Part shown: positions 5,886 to 53,935 of the stretch, in pieces
Numbering within the stretch: position 1 is the first letter of the stretch
Layout of the letters: every line of letters begins with the position of its first letter
Virus record (IMG/VR): IMGVR_UViG_3300045988_149468
Span: 1-64,000 of that record
Reading direction: 5' to 3' (one strand)
Length of the DNA: 64,000 nucleotides
Origin: a virus
Notes under the pieces: model-generated
Told to the model about the DNA's origin: nothing
Database searches by the model: none
The model's input: the letters and a program-made list of their open reading frames with translations, nothing else
Program-made: the position numbers and the translations under genes

Positions 5886-6010
5886 ATACCTTTAATTCGT
5901 GAACTACTCACGAGCTAAGCTCGTTGGCTTCCTAGGTAAGGTTACTATTGTAACTAATTTACTAGGCTCAAAAGATTGTTCCAATCTCTTATTTTTTTAT
6001 TATTGTAATA
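5886..6010 (-). ncRNA. candidate omega RNA and guide of the IS1341-like element
   Basis: In the minus-strand sense, structured sequence follows the tnpB stop (GTTAC-AATA-GTAAC and ACGAGC-TTA-GCTCGT hairpins). It ends at the inferred right end; the next ~20 nt of flank would be the guide. Confidence 0.45.
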
Positions 6011-7215
6011 TTCTCAATCCTTCATGTAATATATTTATACTTGCATTTATATCTCTATCATGATGCTTGCCACAATATGGACAAGTGAACTCTCTTATGT
6101 CTAATGGTTTTTTGCCTGTATTTTCACCACAATTAGAACATATTTGACTAGAAGGATAATATTTATCTACAAAAGAAATTGTTCTTCCATACCATTTAGC
6201 CTTATATTCTAATTGTCTTCTAAATTCATACCATCCTACATCTGATGCAGATTGAGATAAATATTTATTTTGTTGAATTTCTTTTACTTGTAAATCTTCC
6301 AAACATATTACTTGGTTTTCGTTTATAAGTTCAGAAGTTAATTTATGTAAAAAATCTTTTCTTTGATTAGCTATTTTTTCATGTAGTTTAGCAACTTTTA
6401 TTCTTTGTTTATTTCTGTTTTTACTACCTTTTTTCTTCCTAGATAACTTTATTTGTTCTTTAGCTAATTTATTTAATGATTTTTTCAAATATCTAGGATT
6501 AGGATATTTTATACCATCTGAAGTTATTGCAAAATCAGTTAATCCTAAATCTATACCAACTGCGAATTTACTTTTAGGTAACTGTTTTATTTCTTGATCC
6601 ACTAATATAGAAATATAATATTTATTATCAGGATTTTTAGATATTGTAGCTGATTTAATTATTCCATCTTTAGGTATTTGTCTATGTAATTTAATTCTAA
6701 CTAATGTTTTTAATTTTGGTAACTTAATATACTTGTCATCTATTATTTTTATTGTTTGTGTTTTTTGATTGTTATTTGTTGTATAATTATAATGATTATT
6801 CTTTTTAGATTTAAATTTAGGAAATCCGACTGATTTATCTCTAAAGAAATTTTTATATGCTTTGTCTAAATTCATTTGAGCATTAGCTAATGCTAAACTA
6901 TCCACTTCTTTTAACCATTGATATTCTTTTTTATACTGCGCAGGAGTATTATTTAACATTTTATTGTTTTCTTTATAATACTCTATTTTATCGTTTAACA
7001 TTTTGTTATATATAAATCTAACACTACCAAAACATTTAGAAAAATATATCTTTTGTTCTTTATTTGGATATAGTCTATATTTATATGCTTTTAACATTTT
7101 ATCACCTCCTTATACTATATAGTATTTCCATTTTAAGGTAAAAATAAACCTATTTTAACTATATTAAAAAGATAATAAAACGCCTTACAATGGAAATATA
7201 AAGGGATTTTTAATA
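5906..7215 (-). mobile_element. TnpB-only IS200/IS605-family (IS1341-like) insertion
   Basis: It has tnpB plus a subterminal hairpin at the right end (ACGAGC-TTA-GCTCGT). The right-end boundary at 5905/5906 comes from comparison with an uninterrupted paralogous sequence at about 5225-5290. The left-end boundary (about 7200-7215) is uncertain. A long-range inverted repeat, TATTTCCATT(T/G)TAAGG, lies at about 7121 and about 7185. Confidence 0.6.
6000..7097 (-). CDS. tnpB: TnpB (IS200/IS605-family OrfB), from a different lineage than the other two copies
   Basis: 'YKYRLYPNKEQ', 'VGIDLGLTDF', 'ICLEDLQVKEI' and 'CSNCGE...CPYCGKHHDRDINASINI' are present. Confidence 0.9.
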   Translation of the reverse strand: MLKAYKYRLYPNKEQKIYFSKCFGSVRFIYNKMLNDKIEYYKENNKMLNNTPAQYKKEYQWLKEVDSLALANAQMNLDKAYKNFFRDKSVGFPKFKSKKNNHYNYTTNNNQKTQTIKIIDDKYIKLPKLKTLVRIKLHRQIPKDGIIKSATISKNPDNKYYISILVDQEIKQLPKSKFAVGIDLGLTDFAITSDGIKYPNPRYLKKSLNKLAKEQIKLSRKKKGSKNRNKQRIKVAKLHEKIANQRKDFLHKLTSELINENQVICLEDLQVKEIQQNKYLSQSASDVGWYEFRRQLEYKAKWYGRTISFVDKYYPSSQICSNCGENTGKKPLDIREFTCPYCGKHHDRDINASINILHEGLRILQ

Positions 7216-8777: not shown

Positions 8778-8817
8778 AATATAACCTCCTAATTATTAAT
8801 TTATATTTTTGTTACCA

Positions 8818-8886
8818 CCTAAGAGGATAATTATCCTCTTAACGCTTAGGGCTTAAGGTATTGTTTTTAGCTGCCCTAACAACTTA
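8818..8886 (-). ncRNA. conserved two-hairpin RNA element, copy A
   Basis: The hairpins are 8820-8841 (AAGAGGATA/TATCCTCTT) and 8846-8852/8873-8879 (TTAGGGC/GCCCTAA). It is homologous to 11128-11197, with compensatory changes in both stems. Confidence 0.55.
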
Positions 8887-10971: not shown

Positions 10972-11127
10972 TTTATTTCCCTCCTGTTATTAATTTATAT
11001 TTATATTGTATATTAATTAATGTTATTTGTCAACTACTTTTTATGTATTTACTATGTTTTTTTATTAACTTGTATCAGGTAAGATCAGATACTAATTAAT
11101 ATTTTGTAGGTTGATTTGATTTGCTAA

Positions 11128-11197
11128 CCTAAGGGAATTAAATATTCCCTTAACGCTTTGGGCTTAATAGCCTTTTTAGAGTTGCCCAAACAACTTA
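11128..11197 (-). ncRNA. conserved two-hairpin RNA element, copy B
   Basis: The hairpins are 11130-11152 (AAGGGAAT/ATTCCCTT) and 11157-11163/11184-11190 (TTTGGGC/GCCCAAA). See copy A. Confidence 0.55.
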
Positions 11198-13608: not shown

Positions 13609-14466
13609 ATGATTAATTTACAAATTGACTTAGGTCATTACAATATAAAGACTAATGTAGGAATTGTATTTAAAAGTACATTTAAAAAAGGTAAAGAAAT
13701 AAATCCATTTGGTGAAGACATAATTTATATTGAAAATGAATATTACACAATGGAAAAAGGATCATTTGATAATACTAATAACAAAGCTTTAAAGAATTAT
13801 AAACCAAATTTATGTTATGCTATAGCTAAATCCATTGACACTACTGAAGCTGATATTAATTTAATGTTAGGTATTCCATTGGATTCTTTAGGTGCATTTG
13901 ATTTATTTAAAGAAGAATTATTACATCAAACATTAGAATTTGAATATAATAAAATTCCATATAGAATATATATTAATGATATTAAAGCTGTTGGGGAAGG
14001 TATTTCAAGTTATTATACTTTATCAGAGAAACAAAGAAGTGAAGATTTATTAATAGTAGATATAGGTGGTAGAACTACCAATGTTGTTACTTTTGAAAAG
14101 GGTAAACTAACTCATAAATTTACTATTCCACTTGGTACAATACATCTATTTAGTAGGATTGGAACTAGATTTAATAATGATGAAGGATCTAATAAGGTTG
14201 TAGAAGAAATAGAAAGATTAATTGATAATGGATATATTAAGAATACTGAAATAGAAGAAAAACAATTTTTAAATGATATAATGAATTATATAGAAGGTAA
14301 GGTAGATAGAAGAACATATAAGAATTATTATACTGGGGGAGGTAGTTTAAGACTTAAAAGATTAATAGAAGAGTATTTAAGTCCTTCTGGTATAGTAATG
14401 GATAATCCTTTGTTTACTAATGTAAAAGGTAATGAAATAATAGCTAATATGATTTGGAGAGATTAA
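13609..14466 (+). CDS. parM: ParM/Alp-family actin-like plasmid segregation ATPase
   Basis: The actin-fold phosphate motifs are 'QIDLGHYNIK' and 'LLIVDIGGRTTNVV', with 'YYTGGGS' near the C-terminus. A small DNA-binding gene follows immediately. Confidence 0.8.
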   Translation: MINLQIDLGHYNIKTNVGIVFKSTFKKGKEINPFGEDIIYIENEYYTMEKGSFDNTNNKALKNYKPNLCYAIAKSIDTTEADINLMLGIPLDSLGAFDLFKEELLHQTLEFEYNKIPYRIYINDIKAVGEGISSYYTLSEKQRSEDLLIVDIGGRTTNVVTFEKGKLTHKFTIPLGTIHLFSRIGTRFNNDEGSNKVVEEIERLIDNGYIKNTEIEEKQFLNDIMNYIEGKVDRRTYKNYYTGGGSLRLKRLIEEYLSPSGIVMDNPLFTNVKGNEIIANMIWRD

Positions 14467-14467
14467 T

Positions 14468-14692
14468 ATGACTAATAAAAAAAGAGTTAGTTTGTATTTA
14501 AATATTGATAATCCAAAAGAAAAAGAAATATGGGATTTTCTTGAATCATATGGTAAGAAGAATGAATGTATTAGAAATGCATTATACCAATATATGATTA
14601 ATGGGGATATAAAATATATTAAACCTAAAGAAGATAATAAATTAAATAAAAAAGAAACAGATTACATGTTAAATAATATAATAATAGGATAA
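14468..14692 (+). CDS. parR: ParR-like small centromere-binding protein (ribbon-helix-helix type)
   Basis: It is 74 aa and its start abuts the parM stop. The N-terminus 'KRVSLYLNIDNPKEKEIWDFL' is RHH-like. Confidence 0.6.
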   Translation: MTNKKRVSLYLNIDNPKEKEIWDFLESYGKKNECIRNALYQYMINGDIKYIKPKEDNKLNKKETDYMLNNIIIG

Positions 14693-14829
14693 TATTTATG
14701 GAGTGATTAAATTCACTCCTATTTTTTATGGTTTAAAATTCTATAAATATGGTAATAATATAAATATATTGACACATTTCTTTTTATGTGTTATAATGTT
14801 AATATATTAATTAATAAGGGGTTGATATT

Positions 14830-15634
14830 ATGTTACCAGTATTTAATGATTATATATTTTTTTTAAAAGAAAAAAATAAAGAATTAGATTTTCTAAAAGA
14901 GGGTATTTATTGGTATGATAGAAGCATCATAAAAGCTTTTGATAAAAAGGGAAACATTATAAAAATAGCAAGATTAAAAATAGATGATGATTTAAATTTA
15001 GAAATTAAAAAATATAAAAATAAAAATATGGAATTGGAAACATGGGAAGACACAATAAATAGAAATTTAAATCATTTAAATGATTTAGAAAAGAAATCAA
15101 AAGAAACAATTCATAAATATTTAAATATATATTTAGATAGTAAAATAGCAATTTTAAGTTCTGGAGGAAAAGATAGTTCAGTTACAACTTATTTAGTTAA
15201 ACAATGTTTTAATAATCCAAAAATAATATTTAACAATACTTCATTAGATTGTGTGGATACATATAGACATATTAAAAAAGAAAATAATTTAATCATAATA
15301 AATCCAAAAGAAGGATTTTATCAATGGAGAAAAAGATTAAATTTTGTGCCTACTAGATTTGCTAGAGCTTGTTGCAATATATTCAAAGAAGGTGCGATGA
15401 TAGATTATTTAGATAAAAACGATAAATATTTATTCTTTATGGGTATGAGAAATCAAGAATCTGCTAAACGTTCTAATTACACAGATGAATGGAAAAATGA
15501 TAAATGGAAAGGCAGGGAATGGAATGCGATATTGCCTATTAGAGAATGGTCAGAATTAGATGTGTGGTTATATATATTAAAGAATGATATTGATATAAAC
15601 CCTAAATATAAAAAAGGTTATAGTAGAGTTGGGT
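14830..15634 (+). CDS. PAPS-reductase-like (PP-loop ATPase) protein, exon 1
   Basis: The PP-loop 'ILSSGGKDSS' and the 'ARACCNIF' Cys pair are present. The frame runs into intron sequence after 'GYSRVG'. The track ORF 14830..15645 ends at an intron-borne stop. Confidence 0.75.
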
Positions 15635-15993
15635 GGACAAAATAAACGCCCCCTTATATAGTGATATACATTGAATAACATGGTGAACGTGTTTTATCAG
15701 CACGGTGTGTATTCTACGATTAGGAGTTATAGGAAATGATAACTAGAGAATACGCTAACAGGGAAGCCTAAGTCAAAAGATATGGTAATCCTGTGGTAAG
15801 GCTTTTGAAAAAAATATATTATAAGTTATTGTTTTTATTATAAAATATGGAAAGAATATAGAGAATTTCAAAAGCAAACTCAAACGACTATCCTGAGAGG
15901 GAGTAGGATGGAGATTGATACCATCCGAAGTGCCATGAATCTCTTATGAGATTATGATATAGTCTATACCATTGGAAACAATGGAGGAATATG
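15635..15993 (+). ncRNA. group I intron (no ORF) in the PAPS-reductase-like gene
   Basis: P1 pairs exon GGGT(15631-15634) with GCCC (15648-15651), giving a terminal U-G. Core strings are CCTAAGTCAA (15767-15776), ACGACTA (15884-15890) and GATATAGTC (15956-15964). A CCATTG-GAAA-CAATGG hairpin and a terminal G (15993) follow. Confidence 0.75.
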
Positions 15994-16445
15994 GTGCTAT
16001 AGCTTGTCCTTATTATACTAAATCAACTTGGATATTAGATGAATATTGGTATCCTAAAATGTACGACAGATGGCATAAAATATTGACTGAAGATTTTATA
16101 AGTAATAATAAAGACATAATAATGAATTGCACTGAAAAAGAATACCATATGTGTTGGAATGGTGGTAAATTAAGAGATGAACCCACACAAGAAGTAATTG
16201 AGCAATTCGCAGAGAGAGAGAAAGTAAATGTTAATGTAGCTAAAAATTATTTTAGTCATACTTGTAAGGAGTGTAGTAAGAAAATAAAAGATAAAAACAC
16301 ATTAGCGATGAATATGAAATTTAATGGTAGGAATATACAAGATATGTATTGTAAAAAACATTTAAAAGAAAAGTTAAATTTAACAGAAGATGATTGGGAT
16401 AATTATATAAAACAATTTAAAAATCAAGGTTGTGAATTATTTTAA
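15994..16445 (+). CDS. PAPS-reductase-like protein, exon 2
   Basis: The predicted junction reads ...GYSRVG-C-AIACPYYTKSTW, restoring a Cys-containing motif. The C-terminal region is Cys-rich (CKECSKK..., CKKH). Confidence 0.7.
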
Positions 16446-16470
16446 TTTATATTAATCACAACAATTAATA

Positions 16471-16500
16471 AGAGGTGATTAATTCCACCTCTTATTTTTT
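16471..16500. terminator. bidirectional terminator between convergent genes
   Basis: The stem AGAGGTG/CACCTCT is flanked by A/T runs. Confidence 0.6.
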
Positions 16501-17472
16501 TTATTTACCTAATAGTTCATTTACTTCTAATTCAATATAATATTGCAATTTATTTTCCATTGTCTTTTTAAAATAATTATAAGAACGATTACCAATGATT
16601 GTTATATTATCTTTATCTAATGTTATTGAAACTGAATCATAAAACGCTTTAGTAAAGAAATCATCATTATAATTAGATTTGTATATTTCAAAATCTTTAT
16701 CAAACAATAATTTAGTTCCTTGAGTAAAATAATCTTCTATTGATGTTGTATTTTTTATTTCTTTCTTTTCAAAATACTTTCTTTTGTCTAAGTCTTTAAC
16801 ATCAAATATTATATCTGTTACTGTACGTCCAGTTTTCTTAGTTGTAAAATCTATTTCAAACATACCAGTGCTATTTAAAGTGTTAACAGAGGGCGTTATT
16901 ATATTCCTTTGAAAATCAGCATAATTCTTATATTTATCTTCTACCATCATTAATTCTTTTAATTCAGCAACTGAATATGTTATTATTTTTTTAGAATTAC
17001 TCCATAATCTTAATAGATCATACATTCTTTGAGCATAAATTGATTTTAAAGATAGAAATATGCTTAAATTGATTGGGGTATATCCTATTTTTAAATAGTT
17101 TGTTAGAAGCTCATATACTCTATTAGAACAATTCATTTTAAAATAATCATATTCTTCATCATATTCAACACCAGATATAATATTATATTTCCCCCATATT
17201 GAGTATTTAGAATTAGCTTTAACTTCTCTAAAGTAAATAGATTTATCGCTTAAATCATCTAATATTTTGTTCATAGCTTTGATAGAATGATTAGACTTTT
17301 TATTAATTATACTTTTTAGTTCATTTCTAGTTAATATACAAGTCATATCACCATTATTATCTTTCTGTAATTTATATAATATAACCATAAATATTCTCGA
17401 TTGTATTAGTGTTAAATTATATTTAGCCTTTATCAAGTGATTATTTTTCATTAATATTTTGTCATTATCCAT
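16501..17472 (-). CDS. Rep_3-type (RepB-like) theta-replication initiator
   Basis: The N-terminus 'NHLIKAKYNLTLIQSRIFMVILYKLQ' is typical of iteron-binding Rep_3 initiators. Iterons lie directly upstream. Confidence 0.8.
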   Translation of the reverse strand: MDNDKILMKNNHLIKAKYNLTLIQSRIFMVILYKLQKDNNGDMTCILTRNELKSIINKKSNHSIKAMNKILDDLSDKSIYFREVKANSKYSIWGKYNIISGVEYDEEYDYFKMNCSNRVYELLTNYLKIGYTPINLSIFLSLKSIYAQRMYDLLRLWSNSKKIITYSVAELKELMMVEDKYKNYADFQRNIITPSVNTLNSTGMFEIDFTTKKTGRTVTDIIFDVKDLDKRKYFEKKEIKNTTSIEDYFTQGTKLLFDKDFEIYKSNYNDDFFTKAFYDSVSITLDKDNITIIGNRSYNYFKKTMENKLQYYIELEVNELLGK

Positions 17473-17499
17473 ATATTGTCCTCCTTTACATATATTATA

Positions 17500-17660
17500 C
17501 TCCCCTATTTCTCGTATTTGAATACCCTTTTGTCGTATTTAACTACCCCATTTATCGTATATAGTCCCCTATTTGTCGCATTTAAATCCCCTTTTTCTAG
17601 TTTATATTCCCCTAAAACTCGTATATAATCCCCCTTTTATCGTATTTAACTAACTCAAAT
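17500..17660. repeat. about seven 21-22-bp iterons (plasmid origin)
   Basis: The repeating unit is CCCC(T/A)nTT(T/A)TCGTAT(T/A)TnnAT. The TCGTAT-type cores sit near 17512, 17533, 17556, 17576, 17597, 17619 and 17640. Confidence 0.8.
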
Positions 17661-17971
17661 TAAGTAATATCAATATGTTTAAGTTGTCTAAATACTAGTA
17701 AAGACTATTAAATACTATATATAAATACTAAAGAAATACTAAGAAAAGGGGAAAATTACTTTACTTTTTTAATTATTTTTGTCAGAAATATTAAAAAATT
17801 TAGATTTTTCTTTAAAAAATGGTTGACATAATTGTAAAAATATGGTAAAATTATAATATAATAATCAATATTGTTTAAATTTTTATTATTATACGATAAA
17901 AAGGGGAGTTTAAGTTTAAAAACCTCAACAAATGATAACAATAATAAGTAGATGATGTGATAAAAATTATA

Positions 17972-18006
17972 TCAATATAGAAATTAATAACAGATTAAAC
18001 AGTAAA
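17972..18006 (+). repeat. 35-nt direct repeat, left copy, flanking the GH13 gene
   Basis: TCAATATAGAAATTAATAACAGATTAAACAGTAAA matches 19161-19195 with 2 mismatches and includes the box. Confidence 0.8.
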
Positions 18007-18089
18007 TAAGTGATAACCTTATAAAAGAAAGGATTGGTGATTATTTAATATGATAAATCTAAATAATTTAATTAAAAGAGGTGATTATT

Positions 18090-25458: not shown

Positions 25459-25534
25459 ACAGATGTAGTTTAATTGATAAAATATCTGACTCCAAATCAG
25501 AATGATGTAGGTTTGAATCCTACTGTCTGTGCCA
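25459..25534 (+). tRNA. trnW: tRNA-Trp (anticodon CCA) with encoded CCA end
   Basis: I folded a full cloverleaf by hand. It has a 7-bp acceptor (two G-U pairs), a D-arm, the anticodon arm TCTGA-CTCCAAA-TCAGA, the T-arm GTAGG-TTTGAAT-CCTAC, discriminator G and CCA. Confidence 0.8.
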
Positions 25535-28089: not shown

Positions 28090-29430
28090 TGAAAACTTAT
28101 AAATATTTATTGACATATTGATGATTCTATGATATAATCTAATTATGATAATTAATAAGGGGAGTGATGAGATGAAATCTTTTATTGTTAGATTGTATCC
28201 AACTAAAGAACAAGAGATTCTGTTCTATAAACATATTAACTGTCAAAGATATGTTTATAATTGGGCATTGAATTTGAATAATGAATTATACAGAAAAGAT
28301 AAAAAGAAATATTCTTCTACTGAGTTAGGTAAAATGTTAACACAATATAAAAAACAAGAAGTGTGGTTGAGTGAAGTTTCTAATGCAACATTAAAAGAAT
28401 CAATTAGAAATTTAGATAAAGCTTATACTAATTTCTATAAGAAAAGAGCAAAATTGCCTAAATTTAAAAGTAAAAAGAAATCTAAATTATCTTTTTACAG
28501 CAGATATGACAAAATTAAATTTTATCAAAATAATACTGTTAATTTAGAAAAAATAGGTAAAGTTAAATATAGATCTAGTTATGATATTGATTTTACTAAA
28601 GAAAATTCATTTAAAAATCCTCATGTGAGTTTCAATGGTAGATGTTGGGTTCTCACGTTTGGATTAGAATTAAAAAATGAAGTTGACATACCAACAGACA
28701 ATGTTATTGGAATCGACTTAGGAATTAAATATTTAGCAGTATGTAGCGATGGAGTTGTTTATAAAAATATAAATAAAGATGCTTCTGTTAAAAAATTAGA
28801 AAAAAGACTTAAAAGATTACAAAGACAAGTGAGTAGAAAATATGAATTAAATAAGAAGGGAGGGAATCGTTACATTAAAACTAATAATATTAAAAAGTTA
28901 GAAAAAGATATTAAGAATATTCATCGAAGACTTAAGAATATAAGATTAAATCATTTACATCAAACAACTGCTGACATAGTGAAAACCAAACCATACAAAG
29001 TAGTTATGGAAGATTTAAATATTACAAATATGATGAAAAATAAATCAATAGCAAAACACGTTTCTAAATTGGGCTTATATGAGTTTATTAGACAAATGAA
29101 ATATAAATGTGAATGGAATGGTATTGAATTTATACAGGTAGATAGATATTATCCATCAAGCAAAATGTGTAGTAAATGTGGAAACATTAAACATGATTTG
29201 AAATTGTCGGATAGAAGATATACTTGTAAATGTGGATTAAATATTGATAGAGATTTTAATGCTAGTTTAAATCTTATGAATTATGGATTATCACATTAAA
29301 GATAACTATAATATGTACCCACTCGTTGATGGGGAATTTAAGTCCTGGGACTATCAATTACTAAAGTAGGTTCGCCGAAATAGGATAGGATGAATAGGAA
29401 AATAAATTTATAACTTTTTATAAGTTTTAA
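28090..29430 (+). mobile_element. TnpB unit (promoter, tnpB, structured 3' RNA) inserted between terS-like and terL
   Basis: TTGACA...TATAAT and the box at 28142-28158, then tnpB, then a structured tail (GGGGAATTTAAGTCC...). The element ends are not defined. Confidence 0.5.
28172..29299 (+). CDS. tnpB: TnpB (paralog of 1273..2415)
   Basis: 'FIVRLYPTKEQ', 'IGIDLGIKY', 'VMEDLNITNM' and 'CSKCGN...CKCGLNIDRDFNASLNL' are present. It shares 'RLKKLQRQVSRKYE' with copy 1. I place the start at ATG 28172 (RBS AAGGGGAG) rather than the track start at 28145. Confidence 0.9.
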   Translation: MKSFIVRLYPTKEQEILFYKHINCQRYVYNWALNLNNELYRKDKKKYSSTELGKMLTQYKKQEVWLSEVSNATLKESIRNLDKAYTNFYKKRAKLPKFKSKKKSKLSFYSRYDKIKFYQNNTVNLEKIGKVKYRSSYDIDFTKENSFKNPHVSFNGRCWVLTFGLELKNEVDIPTDNVIGIDLGIKYLAVCSDGVVYKNINKDASVKKLEKRLKRLQRQVSRKYELNKKGGNRYIKTNNIKKLEKDIKNIHRRLKNIRLNHLHQTTADIVKTKPYKVVMEDLNITNMMKNKSIAKHVSKLGLYEFIRQMKYKCEWNGIEFIQVDRYYPSSKMCSKCGNIKHDLKLSDRRYTCKCGLNIDRDFNASLNLMNYGLSH

Positions 29431-43778: not shown

Positions 43779-45672
43779 ATGGCAGATCATCAATTTAATA
43801 TTAAATTAGGTATTAAAGTTGAAAAAGGTGATTCTGAAAAACAGTTAGAGAATCTCAAAAAATCATTAGAAGAGAAGAAAATTACTTTAAAATTAGATGT
43901 AACTAAGCTTAATGAACAATTAAAAACATTTAAAGATTCGTTAAGTGATGTTAATAAAAAATTAAATGATGCTTTTAAGTTAAATAATGGTGCATTAGAT
44001 AATTTAAAGAATTTAAAAACCGTATTAGAGGAAATCAACAAATTAAGTGGTAAAACTAAAATACAAATTAATAATAGTAAAGACGTAAACACAATTACTA
44101 AAAATTTAGAAACACAGAAACAAAAGTATGCTGAATTAATAAGGTTGAAACAAAGCCTTGAAAAACAAAGAGCTAAAACAACTAATGCTGAATCGTATAA
44201 TGCATTAACAAGAGAAATTGATTTAGTTTCACAAAAAGCAGAAGAATGTAAAACTAAACTTAGTGAACTAACTAAGATTAAGTTAAATGCCGACATGACT
44301 AAAAGTATGGCATCGCAATTTCAAACAATTCAAAAAGAAGCTCAATCCTTAAAAACTTCATTAGAAAATACTTTAAAAAATTCTAATTTAACAATGACTC
44401 AGCAACATGATTTAGAAAATCTCTTAAAAACTATCGAAAAAATCAAAGGTAAAAAAGTAGATTTAAAAACTGATGGAGCAAAAACTAAATTACAAGATAT
44501 AAAAACCAATTTAGAAAGTATTAAAGAAAAATATTCATCAATTAAAATAGATATAAAAACTAACGACAATATTAGAAGTGCGATAAAAACAACTAATGAT
44601 TTTATTAACAAAATTAATTCTGCTCAAAAATCTAAAACTGGTGTAAATTCATTTATTGATGAAGGAAAATTAAATAATTTAAAAACTAAAGTTAAAGATT
44701 TAAGAACTCAATTGTCCGATGTACATTTAAAACCTAATGTTGAATCAGAGATTGAAAACATTATAAAAAAATTAGATAGATGTAAGGTTGAGTTTAAAGA
44801 ATTACAAAATTCAGCTAAATTAAGCATGAAAATAGATGGTGATGTAAATTCACAAACTAAACAGATTGATACTATGTTAAATAAGCTAAAAGAAATGAAA
44901 CAATGGAAAATTGGTTCAAATGCTTATATAGATGAATCTAAAATCAATGAAGCGATATCTAAATTAGAACAGTATAAAAATGAATTGAAAAATTTAGACG
45001 TTAATGATGAAAAAGTTGCATCTGAATTTGAGACTATAAAAAGTAAAATCAATGAAACAACACAAGAAATAAAAGAATTTCAAAATCAAGCTAAGCAAGG
45101 TATGAAAATTGATAGCAATAATGCTAGTATAGATTCATTAAAAAACAAAATCACTCAGTTAAAAAATGAAGAAAAATTAACTGCTGAACAAGCTGAACAA
45201 CTTAAACAAAAATTAAATCAAATATCACAAATGGATGTTGGAAAACAAGCTAATGCTATAAAACATTTTAGAAACGAATTAAAACAAGCTACAGATGAAA
45301 CTTCCAGATTGCAAACTGGTGTTAAAAGAACAAGCACATTCTTTAGTAATCTATATTCAACAATGTCTACATTCTCTCTAGGTAATATTATAAGTATGCA
45401 AATAACCAAAGCTATTTATGGTATAAGTGATACTATTAGAGAATTAGATAAAGCATTTGTTGGGTTAACTAAAGTTGCACCAGATTCATTTCATGGTACT
45501 GCTGAAGAATTAGAAAATGTAAGACAAAAAGCAGTAGAGGTTGGACAAGATGTTGCTCGTAGTGCTACGGATATAATTAATTCAACTGCATCAGCTTTAC
45601 AGTTAGGCGTAAGTAATATTGATAGAGCTATGGAATATGCTAAAAATGTCAATTTATACGCAAATGTCGCAG
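43779..45672 (+). CDS. tail tape measure protein, exon 1
   Basis: It has a long coiled coil, then the TMP core '...SATDIINSTASALQLGVSNIDRAMEYAKNVNLYANVA'. Track ORF 43779..45698 ends at an intron-borne stop. Confidence 0.8.
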
Positions 45673-46043
45673 AAACAACATTCTGCCTATGTTTATAAAG
45701 AGCATAGCAAACTCATTGAATTGCTGGAAAGCCCTAAAGCTCAAATGCCACAACATAATTGGAAACGATAAGTGTGATGGAACGAAAGTAGAAAAAAGTT
45801 TTGAGATAGTATAAGGTTAAACCCTAAGTACTAAAATAATGGGTAATCAGCCTCCAAGTCTCTATAAAGTGAGAAAGGATAAACGACTATTCCGTGACGG
45901 GAAGTACACATATAAGCTATTGATATGTGGAAGTGGTGAGGTTCTTTTTATTGAAAAAGAATGTGATATAGTCTACTCTTATATGAAAGTATAAGAAGTT
46001 CATAAGAGAACTGTCTAGCGTAGCGAGCTAGATGAATACAAGG
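45673..46043 (+). ncRNA. group I intron 1 of the tape-measure gene
   Basis: Features are the P1 hairpin GCAG|AA-ACAACA-TTCTGC, TTGAATTGCTGGAAAG, CCCTAAGT, ACGACTA (45883-45889), GATATAGTC (45965-45973) and the shared 3' module GAAGTTCATAAGAGAACTG (45995-46013). Boundaries are set by reading-frame restoration. Confidence 0.75.
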
Positions 46044-46190
46044 ATATTTCAGAAGAGGATTCAGATAAATATTTAAAATCAATAATGTCAGCGTATGGTG
46101 GCGTTGATGAATCATTGGATGCTATGAGTACCAAAGTTAAAGGTGCTGGTGATAATTACAGTAGATTAACTGATTATATGGATCAGGCAG
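46044..46190 (+). CDS. tape measure protein, exon 2
   Basis: In frame it reads (D)ISEEDSDKYLKSIMSAYGGVDESLDAMSTKVKGAGDNYSRLTDYMDQA. Confidence 0.65.
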
Positions 46191-46563
46191 ATGTTTGCCT
46201 AGTTGTATAGTAATATGCAACCGAAAACAACTCTAATTGCAGGTAATGGGTAAAGCCTTACACTACAATATGCCAGAAATGAGTATATGATAGTGCGAAA
46301 GCGGAAACAACGTAAGGATTCTCATATGGTTAAATCCTAAGTGGGAAATGATTAAATTCATACAATCCCTGTTCATGCAACCAAGCTCCCCTGTATATAA
46401 CGAGGAGAAGGCTCAACGACTAATTGTACATTACAAGCCAATGGTAATGGAAAAGGGTTGCTCCTATTTATATAGGATGAAGAAATAGTCTAATCTTATG
46501 TGAAAGCATAAGCAGTTTGTAAGAGAACGGCATAAATCTTGCGAATTTATGTGAATATGAAAG
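46191..46563 (+). ncRNA. group I intron 2 of the tape-measure gene
   Basis: Features are the P1 hairpin AGGCAG|ATGT-TTGCCT, AATTGCAGGTAA, AATCCTAAGT, ACGACTA (46416-46422) and AAATAGTC (46483-46490). The 3' module variant is GCAGTTTGTAAGAGAACGG. It is most similar to intron 4. Confidence 0.7.
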
Positions 46564-46574
46564 AAACTATGCAG
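46564..46574 (+). CDS. tape measure protein, micro-exon 3 (11 nt by my junctions; 21 nt under an alternative 3' splice site)
   Basis: AAACTATGCAG lies between two intron cores. It is required to keep exons 2 and 4 in frame (..DQA-ETMQ-NNFAVTS..). Confidence 0.45.
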
Positions 46575-46922
46575 GTGAAAGTTTAATCGCCTAGTAATAC
46601 AAGTGATTGTATTATTTTACTTTTTGAATTGCTGGAAACTCCTTAGAGTCTTAAATACTACAACATAATCTGAAAAGATAAGTGTGAAAGTTTAAAAAAT
46701 TTAAGAATTGGAAAATCAGCAGGTAAGATTCTAAGTTGATTATAAAATCAATATGAATAAACTTCAACGACTATTCCTGGCAAGGAAGTACATTCAAGCG
46801 AATGGAAGTGGAAAGCTCTTATAATAATTATAAGATAAAGATATAGTCTAGTATCCTATTGAAAAATAGGGAAGTTCATAAGAGAACTGATTAGGAAGTA
46901 GCGAACCTAATTGAATATAACG
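46575..46922 (+). ncRNA. group I intron 3 of the tape-measure gene
   Basis: Features are TTGAATTGCTGGAAAC, ACGACTA (46767-46773), AGATATAGTC (46839-46848) and GAAGTTCATAAGAGAACTG (46871-46889). It is most similar to intron 1. Confidence 0.7.
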
Positions 46923-47411
46923 AATAATTTTGCTGTTACATCAGCCGACATAGGTGAAGCATTAATGAGAAGTGCTTCAGCTTTTAAATCTAATGGTATG
47001 GATATAAATGAAGGTATAGGATTAATTGTAGGTGCTCAAGAAACGGTTCAAAATGCGGGTAAAGTAGGAAATAGTTTTAAAACAATGATAAATCGTCTTA
47101 ATGGGGTTACTTACTCTATGAAAGAAGGAGATGTTATTGCTAACAAAACTGCACAAGCATTTGAAAAATTAGCAGGTATCAAAATAGTAGATTGGGATAC
47201 TAACAAAGTAAAAGATGCTTATACTATCTTTAGTCAATTAGCAGATAAATGGGATGATATGAACGATGTTCAAAAAAATGGTATAGCAGACGCATTAGGT
47301 GGTGCTCACCATTTGAACACATTACAAGCTTTAATGAACAACTGGGACACTGTCGTACAATATCAACAAGAATATAACGATGGATTCATGGTTGGATCAG
47401 CTGAAAAAGAG
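46923..47411 (+). CDS. tape measure protein, exon 4
   Basis: 'NNFAVTSADIGEALMRSASAFKSNGMDINEGIGLIVGAQETVQNAGKVGNSFKTMINRL' is the classic TP901-type TMP core. It ends ...GSAEKE. Confidence 0.8.
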
Positions 47412-49000
47412 AAACAACATTCTCCGTATGTACAGAAATGTGCATAGGACACAACTTGAATTGCAGGTACAACCTAAGAGCCTTACACCACAATATTGGA
47501 GAAATCACAATATGAAGGTACGAAAGTAGAAACAACGTAAGGATAGATATAAGGTTAAATCCTAAGTATCTAAATGTAATTAAAGTAATTATTACATTAC
47601 AATGGTAGTTCATGCAGAGAAATTCCTAAATTTAATTTATAAAATCATTGACAATATTTACCATTGGTGTTATTATTTAAATATAATAATTAATAAGGAG
47701 GTGATTATTATGGCAAAAAAATATAATGAAAAAGATATTATTGAAATTTTAGAAAAAAATAATGTGATATTATTATCAAATTATAAAAATAGCACAACAG
47801 AATTAAAAATGATTTGTAGCTGTGGAAAGCATTTTAGTAAATCGTTTAAAATAATGAAACGAAGTGGAAATTTTAAATGTAATGATTGTATAAAAAAAGA
47901 ACAAGTAAAAAAACAAACTATGCCTTATGAAATTGCAAAACAGAGAGTTGAAAACTTAGGATATAAATTGTTAACAACCAAAGAAGAATATATTAAAGCT
48001 AGTGAAAAAAACAAATTACAATGTCCAAATGGGCATATATATGAACAAATATTATTAGATTTATTTAAAGGACACAGATGTAAAAAATGTGCATCTAAAA
48101 TAAACGGAGATAAATCTAAATTTAAATACGAAGATGTTAAAAAGGTTATAACTGATTTAGGATTTGAATTATTATCAGCAGAATATGTAAATAATGATAC
48201 TCCTTTAAAAGTTAAATGTAAAAAATGTAATCATATATTTTCCCCAACTTTACATAATTTAAAAAACGGAACTGGCTGTCCAAATTGTTATTCAAAAATT
48301 AGGGGTAAATCTACAATCATACCATACGAGGATAGAGTAAATTATGTTGAAAATTTTAATTATAAAATCTTAACACCAAAAGAAGAATATATTAATGGTG
48401 AAAATAAGGTGAAATTAAAATGTTCAAAAGGACATATTTATGAAGCTAGATTGCATGATTTTTACATTGGAAATAGATGTCCGCATTGTAAGGAATCTAA
48501 AGGTGAAAGAAAAATTGAAAGATTTTTAAAAGAAAATGACATTAGATTTGAAAAACAATACATTATAAAAAGATGTAAATTTAAAAGATATTTACCTTTT
48601 GATTTTTATTTACCTGATTATAACCTTCTTATAGAATATGATGGGAAGCAACATTTTGAAATAAGTGATTATTTTGGGGGTTATGAAAGTTTCATAGATA
48701 CCAAGATAAGAGATACAATTAAAAACATTTATTGTCAAAATAATAACATAGATTTATTGAGAATCTCTTATTGGGATTATAAAAATATTGAGAATATATT
48801 GGCTGATAAATTAAAATTAAACAAGGAAAACTTTCAACGACTAGAGTTGAGATACTCGTAGGATATAAGCGATTGATATCCGAAGTGGGTTGCCCCTAAC
48901 GTAAAGACGAGGGTGAAGAAATAGTCTGCTCATCTATAGAAATATAGAGAAGTTCATAAGAGAACTGCATAGGTATAGCGAATCTATGTGAACAAAAAGG
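47412..49000 (+). mobile_element. group I intron 4 of the tape-measure gene, carrying a nuclease ORF
   Basis: The 5' part (GAG|AA-ACAACA-TTCTC, AATTGCAGGTAC, AATCCTAAGT) and 3' part (ACGACTA 48837-48843, AAATAGTC 48919-48926, GAAGTTCATAAGAGAACTG 48949-48967) are split by a 1.15-kb ORF. That ORF has its own TTGACA promoter and box (47680-47696). Confidence 0.75.
47710..48861 (+). CDS. intron-encoded homing-endonuclease candidate: four tandem zinc-ribbon modules plus a Vsr/DUF559-like PD-(D/E)XK nuclease domain
   Basis: There are four repeats of '...C..G/C......F..G..CP.C'. The C-terminus is 'GERKIERFLKENDIRFEKQY...LPFDFYLPDYNLLIEYDGKQHFE'. ATG at 47710 follows a GGAGGTG RBS. The ORF 3' end overlaps the intron core. 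Confidence 0.65.
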   Translation: MAKKYNEKDIIEILEKNNVILLSNYKNSTTELKMICSCGKHFSKSFKIMKRSGNFKCNDCIKKEQVKKQTMPYEIAKQRVENLGYKLLTTKEEYIKASEKNKLQCPNGHIYEQILLDLFKGHRCKKCASKINGDKSKFKYEDVKKVITDLGFELLSAEYVNNDTPLKVKCKKCNHIFSPTLHNLKNGTGCPNCYSKIRGKSTIIPYEDRVNYVENFNYKILTPKEEYINGENKVKLKCSKGHIYEARLHDFYIGNRCPHCKESKGERKIERFLKENDIRFEKQYIIKRCKFKRYLPFDFYLPDYNLLIEYDGKQHFEISDYFGGYESFIDTKIRDTIKNIYCQNNNIDLLRISYWDYKNIENILADKLKLNKENFQRLELRYS

Positions 49001-52000
49001 AATGCTAGATTTATAGATAGCATAGAAGGTAAAATAACAAAATTAAAAGAACAATTTAATAGTTTGGTTACAACTACAATAAGTACGGATAGTGTTAAAA
49101 CATTTTTAGATGTATTAACAAGTGTATTAGAAACAGTTAATGGTATAGTAAAAGCATTTGATAATATAGGTATGTCTGCTCCTTTGATGATTGGTGTTTT
49201 TGCTAGTTTAGGTAAAACTATAAAAGCTTTAGGTACAGGTTCAGCATTAACTGTGACTGGGGGAAGTATATTTTCAAATTTATTAGGTAGAGCTGGTGTT
49301 CAAATACCACAAACTCTACAACAAAGTACTACTGCAACTGAAGGATTTAGAGTAGCTTTAACTAATGTAAGTGGAGCATCTATGTTAGCTTCAGCAAAAA
49401 CTGCTGTTTTAACTGCGGGTGTAACATTATTAAATACAGTTATGACAGGATTAGCTATTGGTGCTATTGCTTTAGTTTGTAAAGCTTTATATGATTATGT
49501 CAATGCTAATCAAATTGCACATGATAGAATAGAAGATAATATTGATACTACTAAAAGTAATATTAATAGTTATACCAAACAAAAGAATAGCTTAAAAGGT
49601 ATTGCAGAAGAATATGATAATTTAGCGGACAAAACTAATAAAAGTACAAAAGAATCTGAAAGATATCATGAATTACAACAACAAATAGCTGATACTGCAC
49701 CAGATTTAGTTTTAGGACAAGATTCTAATGGAAATCCAATTTTAGCTTTAAATGGATCATTAGAAGATTATATAGATAATTTAGATAGTGCAATAAAAAG
49801 AGAACAAGAGTTTTTAAAAATTCAACAAAATGCATTAGCAAATACTTCAATAGGGAATTTAGTTAAATATACTAAAGATAGAAGTATAGTTGAGTCATCT
49901 CTTGGGAATATGACAAACTTTTCAGATGCATGGGACGATAGTGGTTCATGGTGGAATAAAAAAGGATTAAAAAATGCTAAAGATGGCGCTGATGCCTATG
50001 TTCGTATAGTGCAAGAAAGAAATGATAAAGTAAATAAACTTAATAAAACTTTAACAGAACATTTTACTGAAGTTTCTCAAATAGAAGCAGAACAACAACA
50101 AAAAGTATTTAATGAATTAGGAGATGAATATCTTTATAAAAATTATAATAAGTTATCTAAAGACGGAATTAAGAATACTAAAAATATTATGGATACACTT
50201 ATTGGTAATTTTAACTGGGGTAGTGAAGTCGTAGATACAGTAGCGAAACAAAAGGATTTCATAGAAAGTTTTGATGAAATAGCTTCTAAAGTTGGTAAAA
50301 GCAAAGAAGAAATGCAAGAATGGAATAAAACTTTAAGTGAAGCTAATTATGCTTTCCAAGAAACAGGTGATTATGAACAATTCCAAAAAGACATAAGTGG
50401 TATAACTGAAGAATTAGAAAAAATGACTGGAATTGACGCTGAAAAATGGGCAATTGGATTTACACCAGCTTTACAAGGTTCATTAGATGCTGATTCTATA
50501 GCATTGAGTAAATTTTTAAAGAATTATAATAAAACACTTACAGAACTTAAATCTGGTGATAAAGTAGCAATAAGAATACAAGCCGAATATGAAGATACCA
50601 ATGATTTCATACAAAAGATAACTAATATGGAAGATAGACAGCAACAGATTGATTATATGGTTAAAATTAATACTGGTGAAGTTGAATATGGCAATCTTCC
50701 TTACCAAATTCAAGAAATGATTAAAGGTACTCTTGATGGTGGTAAAACAATGCAAGATTGGGAATCTGATGTTGTTATGAGAATTGCTACTGAAATTCAA
50801 TCTAATGGTGAATTAGATGATAAAACATTTGATTTAATTGCTAGAATGTTAAATGGTGAATTAACCGATACGGAAATTAAAGCAGGGATAACATTACCTA
50901 GTGGTGATGTATTAAATGCACAACTTGTTGGTGAAATAAATGAGGTTAATAAAAATAAAGATAAAAACATTAAAGTAGGAATTGAAGCTGATTCAGAGAA
51001 ATTAGATGAAGATTTATCTACCATTTTAGGTGATAAAGAAGAAGCTAAACAGTTAAAAGTTGATTTAGTTACTAATTTTAATGAAGATAAATTTGAAACA
51101 TTCAATGAATTAATTAAAGATATGGATTCTGATAAACAAATTCAAATAGCTACTGCTTTTGTTAATAATGGTGATGCAGATCCAGATGAAATAGAACAAT
51201 TTATATCATCTTTACCTGATGAAATCCAAAAGATAGTTAGAATTAAGTATGAAGAAAGTGGCAAAAATGATGTTGAAAATAGTGTGTTTAATGAATCTAA
51301 AGTACAGACAATTATACTTGATGCTGATGATGAAAAGGCACAAGCTAAGATTAAGAAATTAGGTAAAACGCTAGATGATATGGACGGTGTTGATAGAAAT
51401 ATTAAAGTTGGTATTATTGAAAATGCTGGTACAGGTAATGTAAAAGATATGATGAAAGCATTAGATTTAGTAAAAGATTTACCAGAAGAAAAAAGATTGG
51501 ATGTTATAAGTAATTTACAAGATATAATGGTAAACTTTTCTGAAGCTGACAAAAAACAACTTAAACCTAAAATAATGGAAATACTTGGTGATAATTCTGA
51601 TGCTAATTCTAAAATAGATAACACAAACGCAAAAGATACCCCAGACAAGAATTTGGATATTAATGCTAACGATAACGCTAGTAATAAAATTCATAAGGTA
51701 CAACAAGAAAGTATAGCCGACAAATTCTTCAACATAGTTGTTGGCGTAAAAGAAACCGTTGCAGGTGCATGGAAAGCTCTAACTAGTGGTGTAGGTGGAT
51801 TATATTCTAAAGGTGATAATAGTACTATAAAACACAAGTCAATTAGTGAATTTTCTAATATAGGAGATAACCCAATAGATGTTGATAGTGCTACACCAAC
51901 AGCTCAAAGTATGGATTTTAACTCTATGTCGGATAGTCCTTCAGTAGTAGATTCTGATTCAACAATAGATAATACAAGCTCAGCTATTAGTAAAGTAAAA

Positions 52001-53935
52001 GCATTTACTACTCAAGCATTAAGAGGATTTACAGATATAGGTAAAACAACTACAATAGGTACAAAAATAGACATAAAGAAAAACACATTAGATTCTATAG
52101 AGTATGCTGTAAACTTAATGCAAGAATTAGAATATCGTATTGATAATGTCAATGATAAATTATCTTTATTGGATGTTAAAATGGAAAATGCAGTAGGTAC
52201 TAAGAAAATTGAATACTTACAAAAACAAAATGCGTTATATGAAGAACAAGCTAAATTACAAAAAGAACTTTATGATAATTTAACTCAAGAAAAGCAAATA
52301 GTTAAAGATAAATTAAGAACATATGGTTTTACAATAGATGCACAAGGGAATCTTAGAAATTATGAAGAAACACTTCTTAAAATGGAAAAAAGAGCTAAAG
52401 AGCTAGAAGACCAAGCCGAAAAAACTAGTAAAAAAGCATCAGATTATGATACTAAAAGTAATAGTAAGTCTAGTAAGAAAACTAAAAAGTCATTACAAAA
52501 GAAAGCCGATAGTTCTAAAGACGCTTCAGATAAATATAAAGAAAAACTTGAAAAGGTAAAAGATTTAACGGAACAATATCTAAAAATGCAAAGAGATGAA
52601 ATTCCAGATGCAGAAAAAGAATGGTTAGAAATGCAAAATGCTATTAAAAAAAATAATGATGAAATAGAAAAGTTAGAATTAGAAGATAAATTATATAAAT
52701 TCAAAAATAGTGTTACTGGATTGACTAATCAATATGACATATGGGGAGATAAAATTGACTTAATAGATACTAAGCTAAACAATTCATTACAAACAGATAA
52801 GGTTTCTTTATATCAACAAAAATTATCAGCTTTAAATAAACAACTTGAAATACAAGAAAAAACATTAGAATCTTTAAAAAATCAATTACCAGTTTATCAA
52901 GAAGCATTATCGAAATATGGTGTTCAGTTTGGAGAAAATGGTAATATCATCAATATGTCTAATGTATTAAATGAATATCAAAATAGTGAAGATTTAGAAA
53001 AGATTAATGATTTAATGAAAGAATATAATGACTTAATCAGAGATACAATTCCAAATGCACAACAAGAATATGAAGATTTGAATAATGCAATTCAAGATGT
53101 TTATAATAGTCAATTAGATGTTGTAAAAGATATTGAAGATAAGATTACTGATGTTATTAAGGATCAAATTGATAAACGTAAAGATTTAATTCAAAAACAA
53201 TATGATAAAGAAATTGAATTACTTAATAAACGAAAAGATGAATATAATAACAATAAAAATACAAATGATTATTATAAAAACTTAGAAGAAGCACAATCTG
53301 AAATTGATAAAATACAAGCTAAAATTAATAGACTAAGTTTTGACAATTCATTATCTAGTAAAAGTAAGATAAGCGATTTAATGGATGATTTAAAAGATGC
53401 ACAAGATAAATATAATGATTTAGTTAACGATAGACAAGACGATTTAATTAATAATATGTATGACGATGAAATTGATAAACTTCAAAAAGAACAAGAAGAT
53501 AAAATACAAGAGCTTGAAGATAAATGGTCAGATAGTAAAATAGCTGAATTAGTTGCTAATGCGTTAGGTACACAACAATTTATAGATATTGACGGAAATG
53601 TTCATAATTTACAAGATACACTGCTTAGTTTTGCTGAAGAAAGTGGAGATGCATTAGGAATATTAGGTGATAAGATTAAAAGTGAATTAGTATTAAATCT
53701 TCAAGATGCTTTAGAATATGCTAAAGATTATAGTAATATATTTGACAACTTAGGATTAAAACATCTAGGTAATGTAAACTATAGTGATAAACTTAATAAC
53801 AAAACATTACGAGTTGATGATATAAGTATTAATGTATATGGTACTGACAACATGGATGAACAAAAAATAGCTAAAGAAGTAGCTAAACAACTTGATGGTA
53901 AATTTAGTGAAATAACAAATGGAGGACTTTTATAG
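49001..53935 (+). CDS. tape measure protein, exon 5
   Basis: It starts 'NARFIDSIEGKITKLKEQFNSL', which joins ...GSAEKE as in uninterrupted TMPs (from my recollection of the family). Hydrophobic segments and ~1,400 aa of coiled coil follow. Confidence 0.8.
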   Translation, partial: NARFIDSIEGKITKLKEQFNSLVTTTISTDSVKTFLDVLTSVLETVNGIVKAFDNIGMSAPLMIGVFASLGKTIKALGTGSALTVTGGSIFSNLLGRAGVQIPQTLQQSTTATEGFRVALTNVSGASMLASAKTAVLTAGVTLLNTVMTGLAIGAIALVCKALYDYVNANQIAHDRIEDNIDTTKSNINSYTKQKNSLKGIAEEYDNLADKTNKSTKESERYHELQQQIADTAPDLVLGQDSNGNPILALNGSLEDYIDNLDSAIKREQEFLKIQQNALANTSIGNLVKYTKDRSIVESSLGNMTNFSDAWDDSGSWWNKKGLKNAKDGADAYVRIVQERNDKVNKLNKTLTEHFTEVSQIEAEQQQKVFNELGDEYLYKNYNKLSKDGIKNTKNIMDTLIGNFNWGSEVVDTVAKQKDFIESFDEIASKVGKSKEEMQEWNKTLSEANYAFQETGDYEQFQKDISGITEELEKMTGIDAEKWAIGFTPALQGSLDADSIALSKFLKNYNKTLTELKSGDKVAIRIQAEYEDTNDFIQKITNMEDRQQQIDYMVKINTGEVEYGNLPYQIQEMIKGTLDGGKTMQDWESDVVMRIATEIQSNGELDDKTFDLIARMLNGELTDTEIKAGITLPSGDVLNAQLVGEINEVNKNKDKNIKVGIEADSEKLDEDLSTILGDKEEAKQLKVDLVTNFNEDKFETFNELIKDMDSDKQIQIATAFVNNGDADPDEIEQFISSLPDEIQKIVRIKYEESGKNDVENSVFNESKVQTIILDADDEKAQAKIKKLGKTLDDMDGVDRNIKVGIIENAGTGNVKDMMKALDLVKDLPEEKRLDVISNLQDIMVNFSEADKKQLKPKIMEILGDNSDANSKIDNTNAKDTPDKNLDINANDNASNKIHKVQQESIADKFFNIVVGVKETVAGAWKALTSGVGGLYSKGDNSTIKHKSISEFSNIGDNPIDVDSATPTAQSMDFNSMSDSPSVVDSDSTIDNTSSAISKVKAFTTQALRGFTDIGKTTTIGTKIDIKKNTLDSIEYAVNLMQELEYRIDNVNDKLSLLDVKMENAVGTKKIEYLQKQNALYEEQAKLQKELYDNLTQEKQIVKDKLRTYGFTIDAQGNLRNYEETLLKMEKRAKELEDQAEKTSKKASDYDTKSNSKSSKKTKKSLQKKADSSKDASDKYKEKLEKVKDLTEQYLKMQRDEIPDAEKEWLEMQNAIKKNNDEIEKLELEDKLYKFKNSVTGLTNQYDIWGDKIDLIDTKLNNSLQTDKVSLYQQKLSALNKQLEIQEKTLESLKNQLPVYQEALSKYGVQFGENGNIINMSNVLNEYQNSEDLEKINDLMKEYNDLIRDTIPNAQQEYEDLNNAIQDVYNSQLDVVKDIEDKITDVIKDQIDKRKDLIQKQYDKEIELLNKRKDEYNNNKNTNDYYKNLEEAQSEIDKIQAKINRLSFDNSLSSKSKISDLMDDLKDAQDKYNDLVNDRQDDLINNMYDDEIDKLQKEQEDKIQELEDKWSDSKIAELVANALGTQQFIDIDGNVHNLQDTLLSFAEESGDALGILGDKIKSELVLNLQDALEYAKDYSNIFDNLGLKHLGNVNYSDKLNNKTLRVDDISINVYGTDNMDEQKIAKEVAKQLDGKFSEITNGGLL

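Follow-up and report, generated by a model that had tools for sequence, protein, structure and literature searches.

The td intron of phage T4 belongs to subgroup IA2 of the group I introns, a subgroup marked by the extra helices P7.1 and P7.2, and carries the gene of the GIY-YIG endonuclease I-TevI in a peripheral loop. A second close parallel comes from the lysin gene of Streptococcus thermophilus phages, where Foley and colleagues reportedly described, in 2000, a group I intron with an open reading frame (ORF), shortened ORF-less derivatives and intron-less alleles, all at a single site. Here we analyzed a stretch of 64,000 nucleotides (nt) of viral DNA, positions 1 to 64,000 of the IMG/VR record IMGVR_UViG_3300045988_149468 (hereafter the window). 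In it, we consider it very likely that 14830-16445 is one gene, encoding a 418-amino-acid (aa) phosphoadenosine phosphosulfate (PAPS) reductase-like PP-loop enzyme of the BrxP/SspD/DndC-like kind, and that this gene is interrupted by a 359-nt group I intron at 15635-15993. Coordinates are those of the window, and features lie on the plus strand unless stated otherwise.

The window intron shares with the td intron the P1-P9 layout, with P7.1 and P7.2 between P7 and the 3' strand of P3, as well as ACGACUA/UAGUCU in P7 and AGAUAUAGUC in J8/7-P7. In both, the frame of exon 1 stops just inside the intron, and both lie in a phage gene with the insertion at a conserved active-site region. The peripheral-loop GIY-YIG gene of td also has its counterpart, as related copies of the intron (loci L262-L264) encode a GIY-YIG plus helix-turn-helix (HTH) protein in a loop of the P6 region. 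Unlike td, the window copy has no endonuclease and contains, between P3 and P4, two additional hairpins that covary, and its host gene is PAPS-reductase-like rather than a gene of nucleotide metabolism. The close relatives of the window present the same three-state population as the S. thermophilus lysin intron, although the host gene, endonuclease and phage are different and the states were found on gut metagenome contigs rather than in isolates.

ORF calling returns the two ORFs from which the initial annotation had started: ORF1 at 14830..15645 (271 aa), with the SGGKDS PP-loop at residues 111-116 and the Cys181-Cys182 pair it had reported, and ORF2 at 15972..16445 (157 aa from a TTG start). 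Its proposal that 359 nt separate the junctions of a single gene, with the spliced reading GYSRVG-C-AIACPYY, agrees with the joined frame, since joining T15634 to G15994 removes 15635-15993 and yields a protein of 418 aa with exactly this junction. Exon 1 (14830..15634) supplies residues 1-268, including the PP-loop and the Cys pair, and the first base of the Cys269 codon; exon 2 (15994..16445) supplies the last two bases of that codon, Cys273, a C-terminal Cys-rich domain and the terminal GCELF. The intron thus interrupts the codon of the conserved Cys269 (U^GU, the caret marking the splice point), and the predicted ligated exon junction is GTTGGGT^GTGCTATAG. Both exons are intact, in frame and without stop codons, and the frame of exon 1 ends at a TAA (15643-45) inside the P1 loop. 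A junction shifted one base in the 3' direction would give an identical mRNA but break the rule that the exon ends in U; we prefer 15634/15993 because only that junction combines an exon-terminal U with an intron-terminal G.

In a search of 5.8 billion proteins, the joined protein has more than 100 uninterrupted homologs (416-420 aa, 100% coverage, up to 94% identity), which carry both parts as one protein. Alignment with them, which the initial annotation had proposed as a check, confirms the junction: it is gapless across this point, and Gly268, Cys269 and Cys273 are invariant. The exact positions are fixed by intron-less alleles in near-identical elements, which read through at the same point, with GTT GGA TGT GCT where the window has GTT GGG T^intron^GT GCT. 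The intron-less DNA runs ...AGAGTTGGA TGT GCT ATA GC... (in the context ...AGAGTTGGATGTGCTATAGC...) and that of the window ...AGAGTTGGG T[359 nt]GT GCT ATA GC.... Public assemblies annotate the two halves as separate ORFs of 271 and 154 aa, as would be expected if two genes, with a structured spacer between them, encoded a PP-loop enzyme and, separately, a small partner rich in Cys. We give this alternative practically no credence: it is already contradicted by the fused homologs and by alleles that are 99% identical in exon 1 and have no spacer, ORF2 would need a TTG start inside the P9 hairpin, and excision from U to G restores the frame exactly. In the split gene that we favor, the TTG at 15972 is not a real start and stems from ORF calling.

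The host enzyme is, by homology, probably an ATP-pyrophosphatase-type sulfur- or adenylate-transfer enzyme. ORF1 matches the Pfam PAPS_reduct family (E 1.3e-28; PF01507 scores the enzyme at 106.7 bits against a cut-off of 22.5 bits), and its PP-loop conforms to SGGxDS: all of its residues but G112, which is at least 90% conserved, are invariant (S111, G113, K114, D115, S116). The PADLOC profile of BrxP matches residues 2-399 (E 1.6e-32) over profile positions 38-442 of 779, its N-terminal half; the 418-aa protein has no SspB/DUF4007-like part and so falls short of the full BrxP architecture. The AlphaFold model (predicted local distance difference test, pLDDT, 89.6; predicted template modelling score, pTM, 0.84) has a fold of the CysH/adenosine phosphosulfate (APS) reductase type: its top Foldseek matches in the PDB are the CysH and APS reductase structures 1sur, 6vpu, 7lhr and 2goy (E ~1e-8 to 7e-7, target-normalised TM-score 0.6-0.7), which leave residues 1-70 and 275-418 uncovered.

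In APS reductases, the first Cys of the SIGCAPC motif and a Cys-Cys pair are ligands of a [4Fe-4S] cluster. Cys181-Cys182, Cys269 and Cys273 are invariant among the homologs of the window protein, and Cys269 is aligned to the first SIGCAPC Cys of the Mycobacterium tuberculosis APS reductase, with a spacing of CxxxC here and CxxC there. The C-terminal GCELF (16432-16445, residues 414-418), which exists only in the spliced product, has G414, C415, L417 and F418 invariant in a 12-sequence alignment, and L417 is at least 90% conserved in a 49-sequence alignment; it is similar to the tail, ECGLH, that bears a catalytic Cys at the C-terminus of PAPS/APS reductases. BrxP, SspD and DndC provide the pyrophosphatase step of DNA phosphorothioation and require a P-loop NTPase partner (PMC12914056). 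With BrxP (BREX type 4), SspD and DndC the window protein has in common the PP-loop and the BrxP-profile match, and it possibly acts on DNA; unlike theirs, its gene stands alone between partition and replication genes, with no BrxC/Z/L, DndD or SspC adjoining. From the presence of the intron we can reasonably infer that the gene is conserved and expressed.

The 359 nt ending in G15993 can be folded helix by helix into an IA2-like group I intron with no intact ORF, in which all core elements were located: P3, P4, P6, P7, P8, the P3/P7 pseudoknot and J8/7. P1 (15631..15651) pairs the exon GGGU (15631-34) with the internal guide GCCC (15648-51) and contains the U15634·G15648 wobble, the U-G pair that had been recognized as GGGT/GCCC. 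The guide 5'-AC^GCCC-3' (15646-15651) can base-pair with GGGU^GU of the ligated exons, so that it provides P1 and a candidate 2-bp P10, AC 15646-47 with the exon 2 GU at 15994-95. P2 (15655..15670) is UAUAUA-GUGA-UAUACA with a GNRA loop and a single A·C mismatch, replaced by G-C in the relative L268. The 5' strand of P3 (15679..15685, CAUGGUG) pairs with UGCCAUG at 15931-15937. Between P3 and P4 stand two hairpins, which we call hpA (15688-15704, CGUG/CACG) and hpB (outer stem 15707-15715/15747-15755, inner stem 15725-15730/15739-15744, loop AGGAAAUG). The P4-P6 domain (15758..15879) consists of P4 ACAGGG/UCCUGU, P5 GCC/GGU, P6 GU/AC and P6a GCUUUUG/CAAAAGC, the last with an A+U-rich loop of 61 nt. 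The catalytic core (15884..15965) is framed by P7, ACGACUA (15884-90) with UAGUCU (15960-65), and includes P7.1 (15891-15902, UCCU-GAGA-GGGA), P7.2 (15906-15926, GGAUGG...CCAUCC), P8 (15938-15953) and J8/7 (15954-59, AUGAUA). P7.1 and P7.2 lie between the 5' strand of P7 and the 3' strand of P3, which places the intron among the IA2-type phage introns. P9 and the 3' tail (15969..15993) comprise CCAUUG-GAAA-CAAUGG (15969-84) and the terminal G15993. The P7 pairing ACGACTA/TAGTC, the GAAA-capped hairpin and the final G had each been seen in the initial annotation, as had the core strings CCTAAGTCAA and GATATAGTC, which we likewise found in the sequence.

The Rfam covariance check that the annotation had suggested turned out mixed. 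In a focused search of 901 nt, RF00028 (Intron_gpI) matches over its full model length with an E of 5e-8, in line with a group I intron, but the score of 38.2 bits stays below the curated gathering score of 50 bits. The group I reading stands despite this, as the extra P3-P4 domain with its two hairpins explains the low score; the threshold is reached by only 4 of 14 loci that share this domain. The 5' half of the intron BLAST-matches introns of cultured phages at 73-82% identity, which split the DNA polymerase gene in Staphylococcus phage SpP, the anaerobic ribonucleotide reductase gene nrdD in Enterococcus phage EFP01 and one gene in Enterocloster CB457P1-type phages, and the minimum free energy of the intron has a z-score of -4.5. 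That the insert is some other element (a group II intron, an intein, an insertion sequence or a miniature inverted-repeat transposable element) seems to us exceedingly improbable. Nothing positive was found for it beyond the fact that the window does carry TnpB genes and an HNH endonuclease, and it is contradicted by the Rfam focused match and by sequence and covariation that fit the group I helices P3-P9. An intein is excluded because the reading frame is not open through the insert, which also has no reverse-transcriptase ORF; nothing points to a group II intron, because in the focused Rfam search only Intron_gpI scored better than E ~1. Fold, covariation, BLAST relatives and exact junctions agree on a group I intron, as first proposed.

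The BLAST-matched introns also contain hpA and hpB. Classical relatives go directly from P3 through AAU to P4, whereas the window intron and the SpP, EFP01 and CB457P1-type introns have the order P3-AAC-hpA-GG-hpB-UAA-P4, with the same hpB loop AGGAAAUG and the GCUAACAGGG P4 entry; their host genes, insertion sites and P1 guide sequences differ from those of the window, and the intron ORF is annotated as ‘intron-associated endonuclease’ in SpP and as ‘hypothetical protein’ in EFP01. The hpB and P4-entry motif occurs on at least 120 IMG/VR contigs (L012-L130 among them). We aligned 28 compact members of this subclass, including the window and collected by a pattern derived from it, and counted P3, hpA, both hpB stems, P4 and P7: 98.2% of cells are paired, as opposed to 30-42% with the partners slid, changes on both sides occur at 21 of 37 pairs, and none of 500 shuffles reaches the observed value. 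In hpA 100% and in hpB 96-100% of cells are paired, with double changes at 15 pairs, and P3 has compensatory changes at 5 of its 7 pairs, which argues that the unusual topology is real. The core helices and J8/7 of the window agree with the subclass consensus.

Our literature searches did not find a description of the two-hairpin P3-P4 module, nor any relevant case of a PAPS reductase gene split by a group I intron; the only precedent that surfaced is the yeast mitochondrial COX1 intron aI5beta, likewise a group I intron with a non-canonical insertion between P3 and P4 (PMC2396411). That intron is mitochondrial and protein-dependent, and the likeness is one of description, its insertion not being known to be the same two-hairpin module. 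It is conceivable, if on balance doubtful, that hpA and hpB with the AGGAAAUG loop mark out a large structural subclass among phage group I introns, formally undescribed and systematically under-scored by the standard Rfam model. If so, many split phage genes would now be annotated as pairs of separate ORFs. Introns of this kind, which are very common in phage contigs, are easily missed because of their low Rfam score, and many of them likely go unannotated.

Among the relatives of the window, the intron site is found in three states. The protein cluster of ORF1 at 90% identity mixes members of 271 and 418 aa, on contigs that share the order ParM-like gene, 74-aa ORF, PAPS-reductase gene and Rep3. 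Loci L259-L261 have no intron (in L259, exon 1 is 99% identical to that of the window and GGA TGT stands at the site); the window, L254-L258 and L268 have an ORF-less intron of 359 or 362 nt; and L262-L264 and L270 have, at the same site, an intron of 1087 nt with a GIY-YIG plus HTH endonuclease of 262-269 aa in the P6a loop, whose GIY-YIG domain matches Pfam at 2.6e-11. L269 also carries the endonuclease-containing form, on a contig that ends within the ORF. The allele of the window is found identically on 15 contigs. The description of the window intron as ORF-less was correct, in that it holds no ORF longer than 36 aa and no intact endonuclease ORF, and can be refined: compared with L262-L264 and L270, about 730 nt of the endonuclease gene are absent between 15805 and 15812, and 15812..15907 preserves a frameshifted relic of its 3' end, reading KKYIISYCFYYKIWKEY / SNDYPERE* in the window and DKYNISYGYYYKLWKKY...SNDYPEME* in L262. 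The window intron is thus a deletion derivative of the 1087-nt version and, judged from these sequences, an endonuclease-less descendant of a mobile intron; with the endonuclease lost, this copy can no longer home by itself.

The changes between alleles largely respect the fold. Between the window and L262 there are compensatory changes in P2, P3, hpA, hpB, P6, P6a, P7.2, P8 and P9 (P7.2 of L262, for example, is GGGUGG/CCACCC), and P6 and P6a also differ in a compensatory manner between the window and L268. All 11 differences between the window and L268, both ORF-less, fall in loops or junctions or preserve pairing, which argues for continued selection on the predicted RNA fold after loss of the endonuclease. 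The Gly268 codon is GGG in every intron-containing allele and GGA in 9 of 9 intron-less loci, a split that fits the need of GGGU to pair with GCCC in P1, and this linked codon is the only firm signal near the insertion site. A co-conversion tract around the insertion was considered and rejected: the mismatches between the window and L259 all lie within gene positions 500-1100, yet at background level, and as the elements are mosaics with an overall divergence of 4-8% we make no broader claim of co-conversion. A metagenome scan for the same exon site (AGAGTNGGNT N{35,65} GTGAAC N{8,20} GGTGT) gave at least 120 matches, with the hpB motif in none of the matches listed, the pattern being too loose. 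A second presence/absence difference concerns an ORF of 575 aa that matches LAGLIDADG faintly and may encode a homing endonuclease; L259-L261 carry it between the Rep3 and alpha-amylase-like genes (~12812-14539 in L259), and the window lacks it at the equivalent place (17473-18080).

Several points weigh against our interpretation. P1 is short, with 4 bp and one possible extension pair, P10 has only 2 bp and P2 contains an A·C mismatch; to the sub-threshold RF00028 score must be added that two scans of the whole window, one at the gathering threshold and one permissive, gave no match to this intron. On the side of the enzyme, no gene for a partner P-loop NTPase (BrxC, SspC, DndD) or a cysteine desulfurase adjoins, and the Fe-S ligands are assigned from the alignment and from general knowledge of APS reductases, with a spacing of CxxxC instead of CxxC. 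Splicing itself we infer from sequence. The short P1, the P2 mismatch and the low Rfam score, along with the deleted endonuclease gene and its frameshifted remnant, would also suit an intron in decay that has ceased to splice, in which case the gene would be a pseudogene or the source of a truncated 271-aa PP-loop domain. We judge this improbable: the exons have stayed open and in frame, an identical allele is present on 15 contigs, not one of the 11 differences from L268 disrupts a pair, the core helices and J8/7 follow the subclass consensus, and a low Rfam score is common to the subclass.

Based on this analysis we can propose how a functional intron would act. The gene would be transcribed from its own promoter, and the intron would fold into P1-P9 with P7.1/P7.2 and the two extra P3-P4 hairpins. 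An external guanosine bound in P7 would attack after U15634, held in P1 by the guide GCCC, and the freed exon 1 would then attack after G15993, with exon 2 aligned by the 2-bp P10. Ligation would rebuild the Cys269 codon from U^GU and hence the motif GC269AIAC273P, which together with Cys181-Cys182 may be equivalent to the CC...CxxC ligands that hold the [4Fe-4S] cluster in APS reductases. Unspliced RNA would yield only the 271-aa product, ending three codons into the intron. The window intron may persist because it still splices.

The gene lies between partition and replication genes, as originally noted. A promoter-like site at 14769..14797 (TTGACA-17 nt-TATAAT, 12/12 matches, with TG before the -10 hexamer; a consensus match only) precedes it. 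Upstream are a ParM-like partition ATPase (13609-14466; PHROG 691 partition protein, E 3e-41) and the 74-aa ORF (14468-14692), an order of partition gene, small ORF and PAPS-reductase gene that is kept in relatives. Downstream, a bidirectional terminator-like hairpin (16467..16496) is common to the gene and to the convergent Rep3-type replication initiator (16501..17472, minus strand; Rep3_N E 7e-23). The window also encodes terminase, portal, tape-measure and tail proteins, and related contigs, from human gut metagenomes, are 130-150 kb long, from which we take the element to be a phage-plasmid. No close relative of it was found among GenBank phages and PLSDB plasmids. Among named homologs, those nearest to the protein come from Cetobacterium and Clostridium; the best of the annotated ones show 31% identity and are found on ~200-kb Clostridium botulinum plasmid records (e.g. 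NC_015417), and a genome scan gave one Clostridium metagenome-assembled genome at 58% identity and two weaker Lachnospiraceae matches of the same kind (29-31%).

Other RNA and mobile elements are present in the window. The tape-measure gene is split into at least three parts (43779-45698, 46911-47447 and 49064-53935), each matching tape-measure PHROGs. Between the first two lie three Rfam group I matches, a sub-threshold one at 45683-45995 (43.8 bits) and two others at 46174-46512 (50.5 bits) and 46567-46871 (73.4 bits), and between the second and third is an HNH endonuclease ORF (47602-48861), around which an Rfam search gave no further, fourth intron. Two Pistol ribozyme matches, 8813-8884 and 11123-11195 (both minus strand; 58.6 and 63.6 bits, cut-off 34.5), sit upstream of partition genes. 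Three ORFs are of the TnpB/IS605 OrfB type with a Cas12f1-like TNB domain (1273-2527 and 28145-29400 on the plus strand, 6000-7097 on the minus strand), and RAGATH-18 matches lie ~50 nt 3' of both plus-strand copies (2467-2527, 63.6 bits; 29344-29400, 37.8 bits, below threshold), a placement that would presumably fit the guide RNA of TnpB nucleases. A tRNA gene (25459-25531, Rfam 63.8 bits) is found between DNA methyltransferase and metallophosphatase genes.

In summary, the window intron is an unambiguous yet unremarkable representative of a familiar type of mobile element, and it leaves what is known of the group I intron mechanism unchanged, nor does it reveal the role of the PAPS-reductase-like enzyme. 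It does mean that the conserved Cys motif of a 418-aa enzyme exists only after splicing, where public gene calls give proteins of 271 and 154 aa. It is well supported that an IA2-like group I intron of a phage occupies a new host gene here, with all three stages of the homing-endonuclease cycle present among its relatives, and these three states, in near-identical gut phage-plasmids, form a ready series in which to study how the intron is gained, how its endonuclease is lost and how selection acts on the ribozyme.

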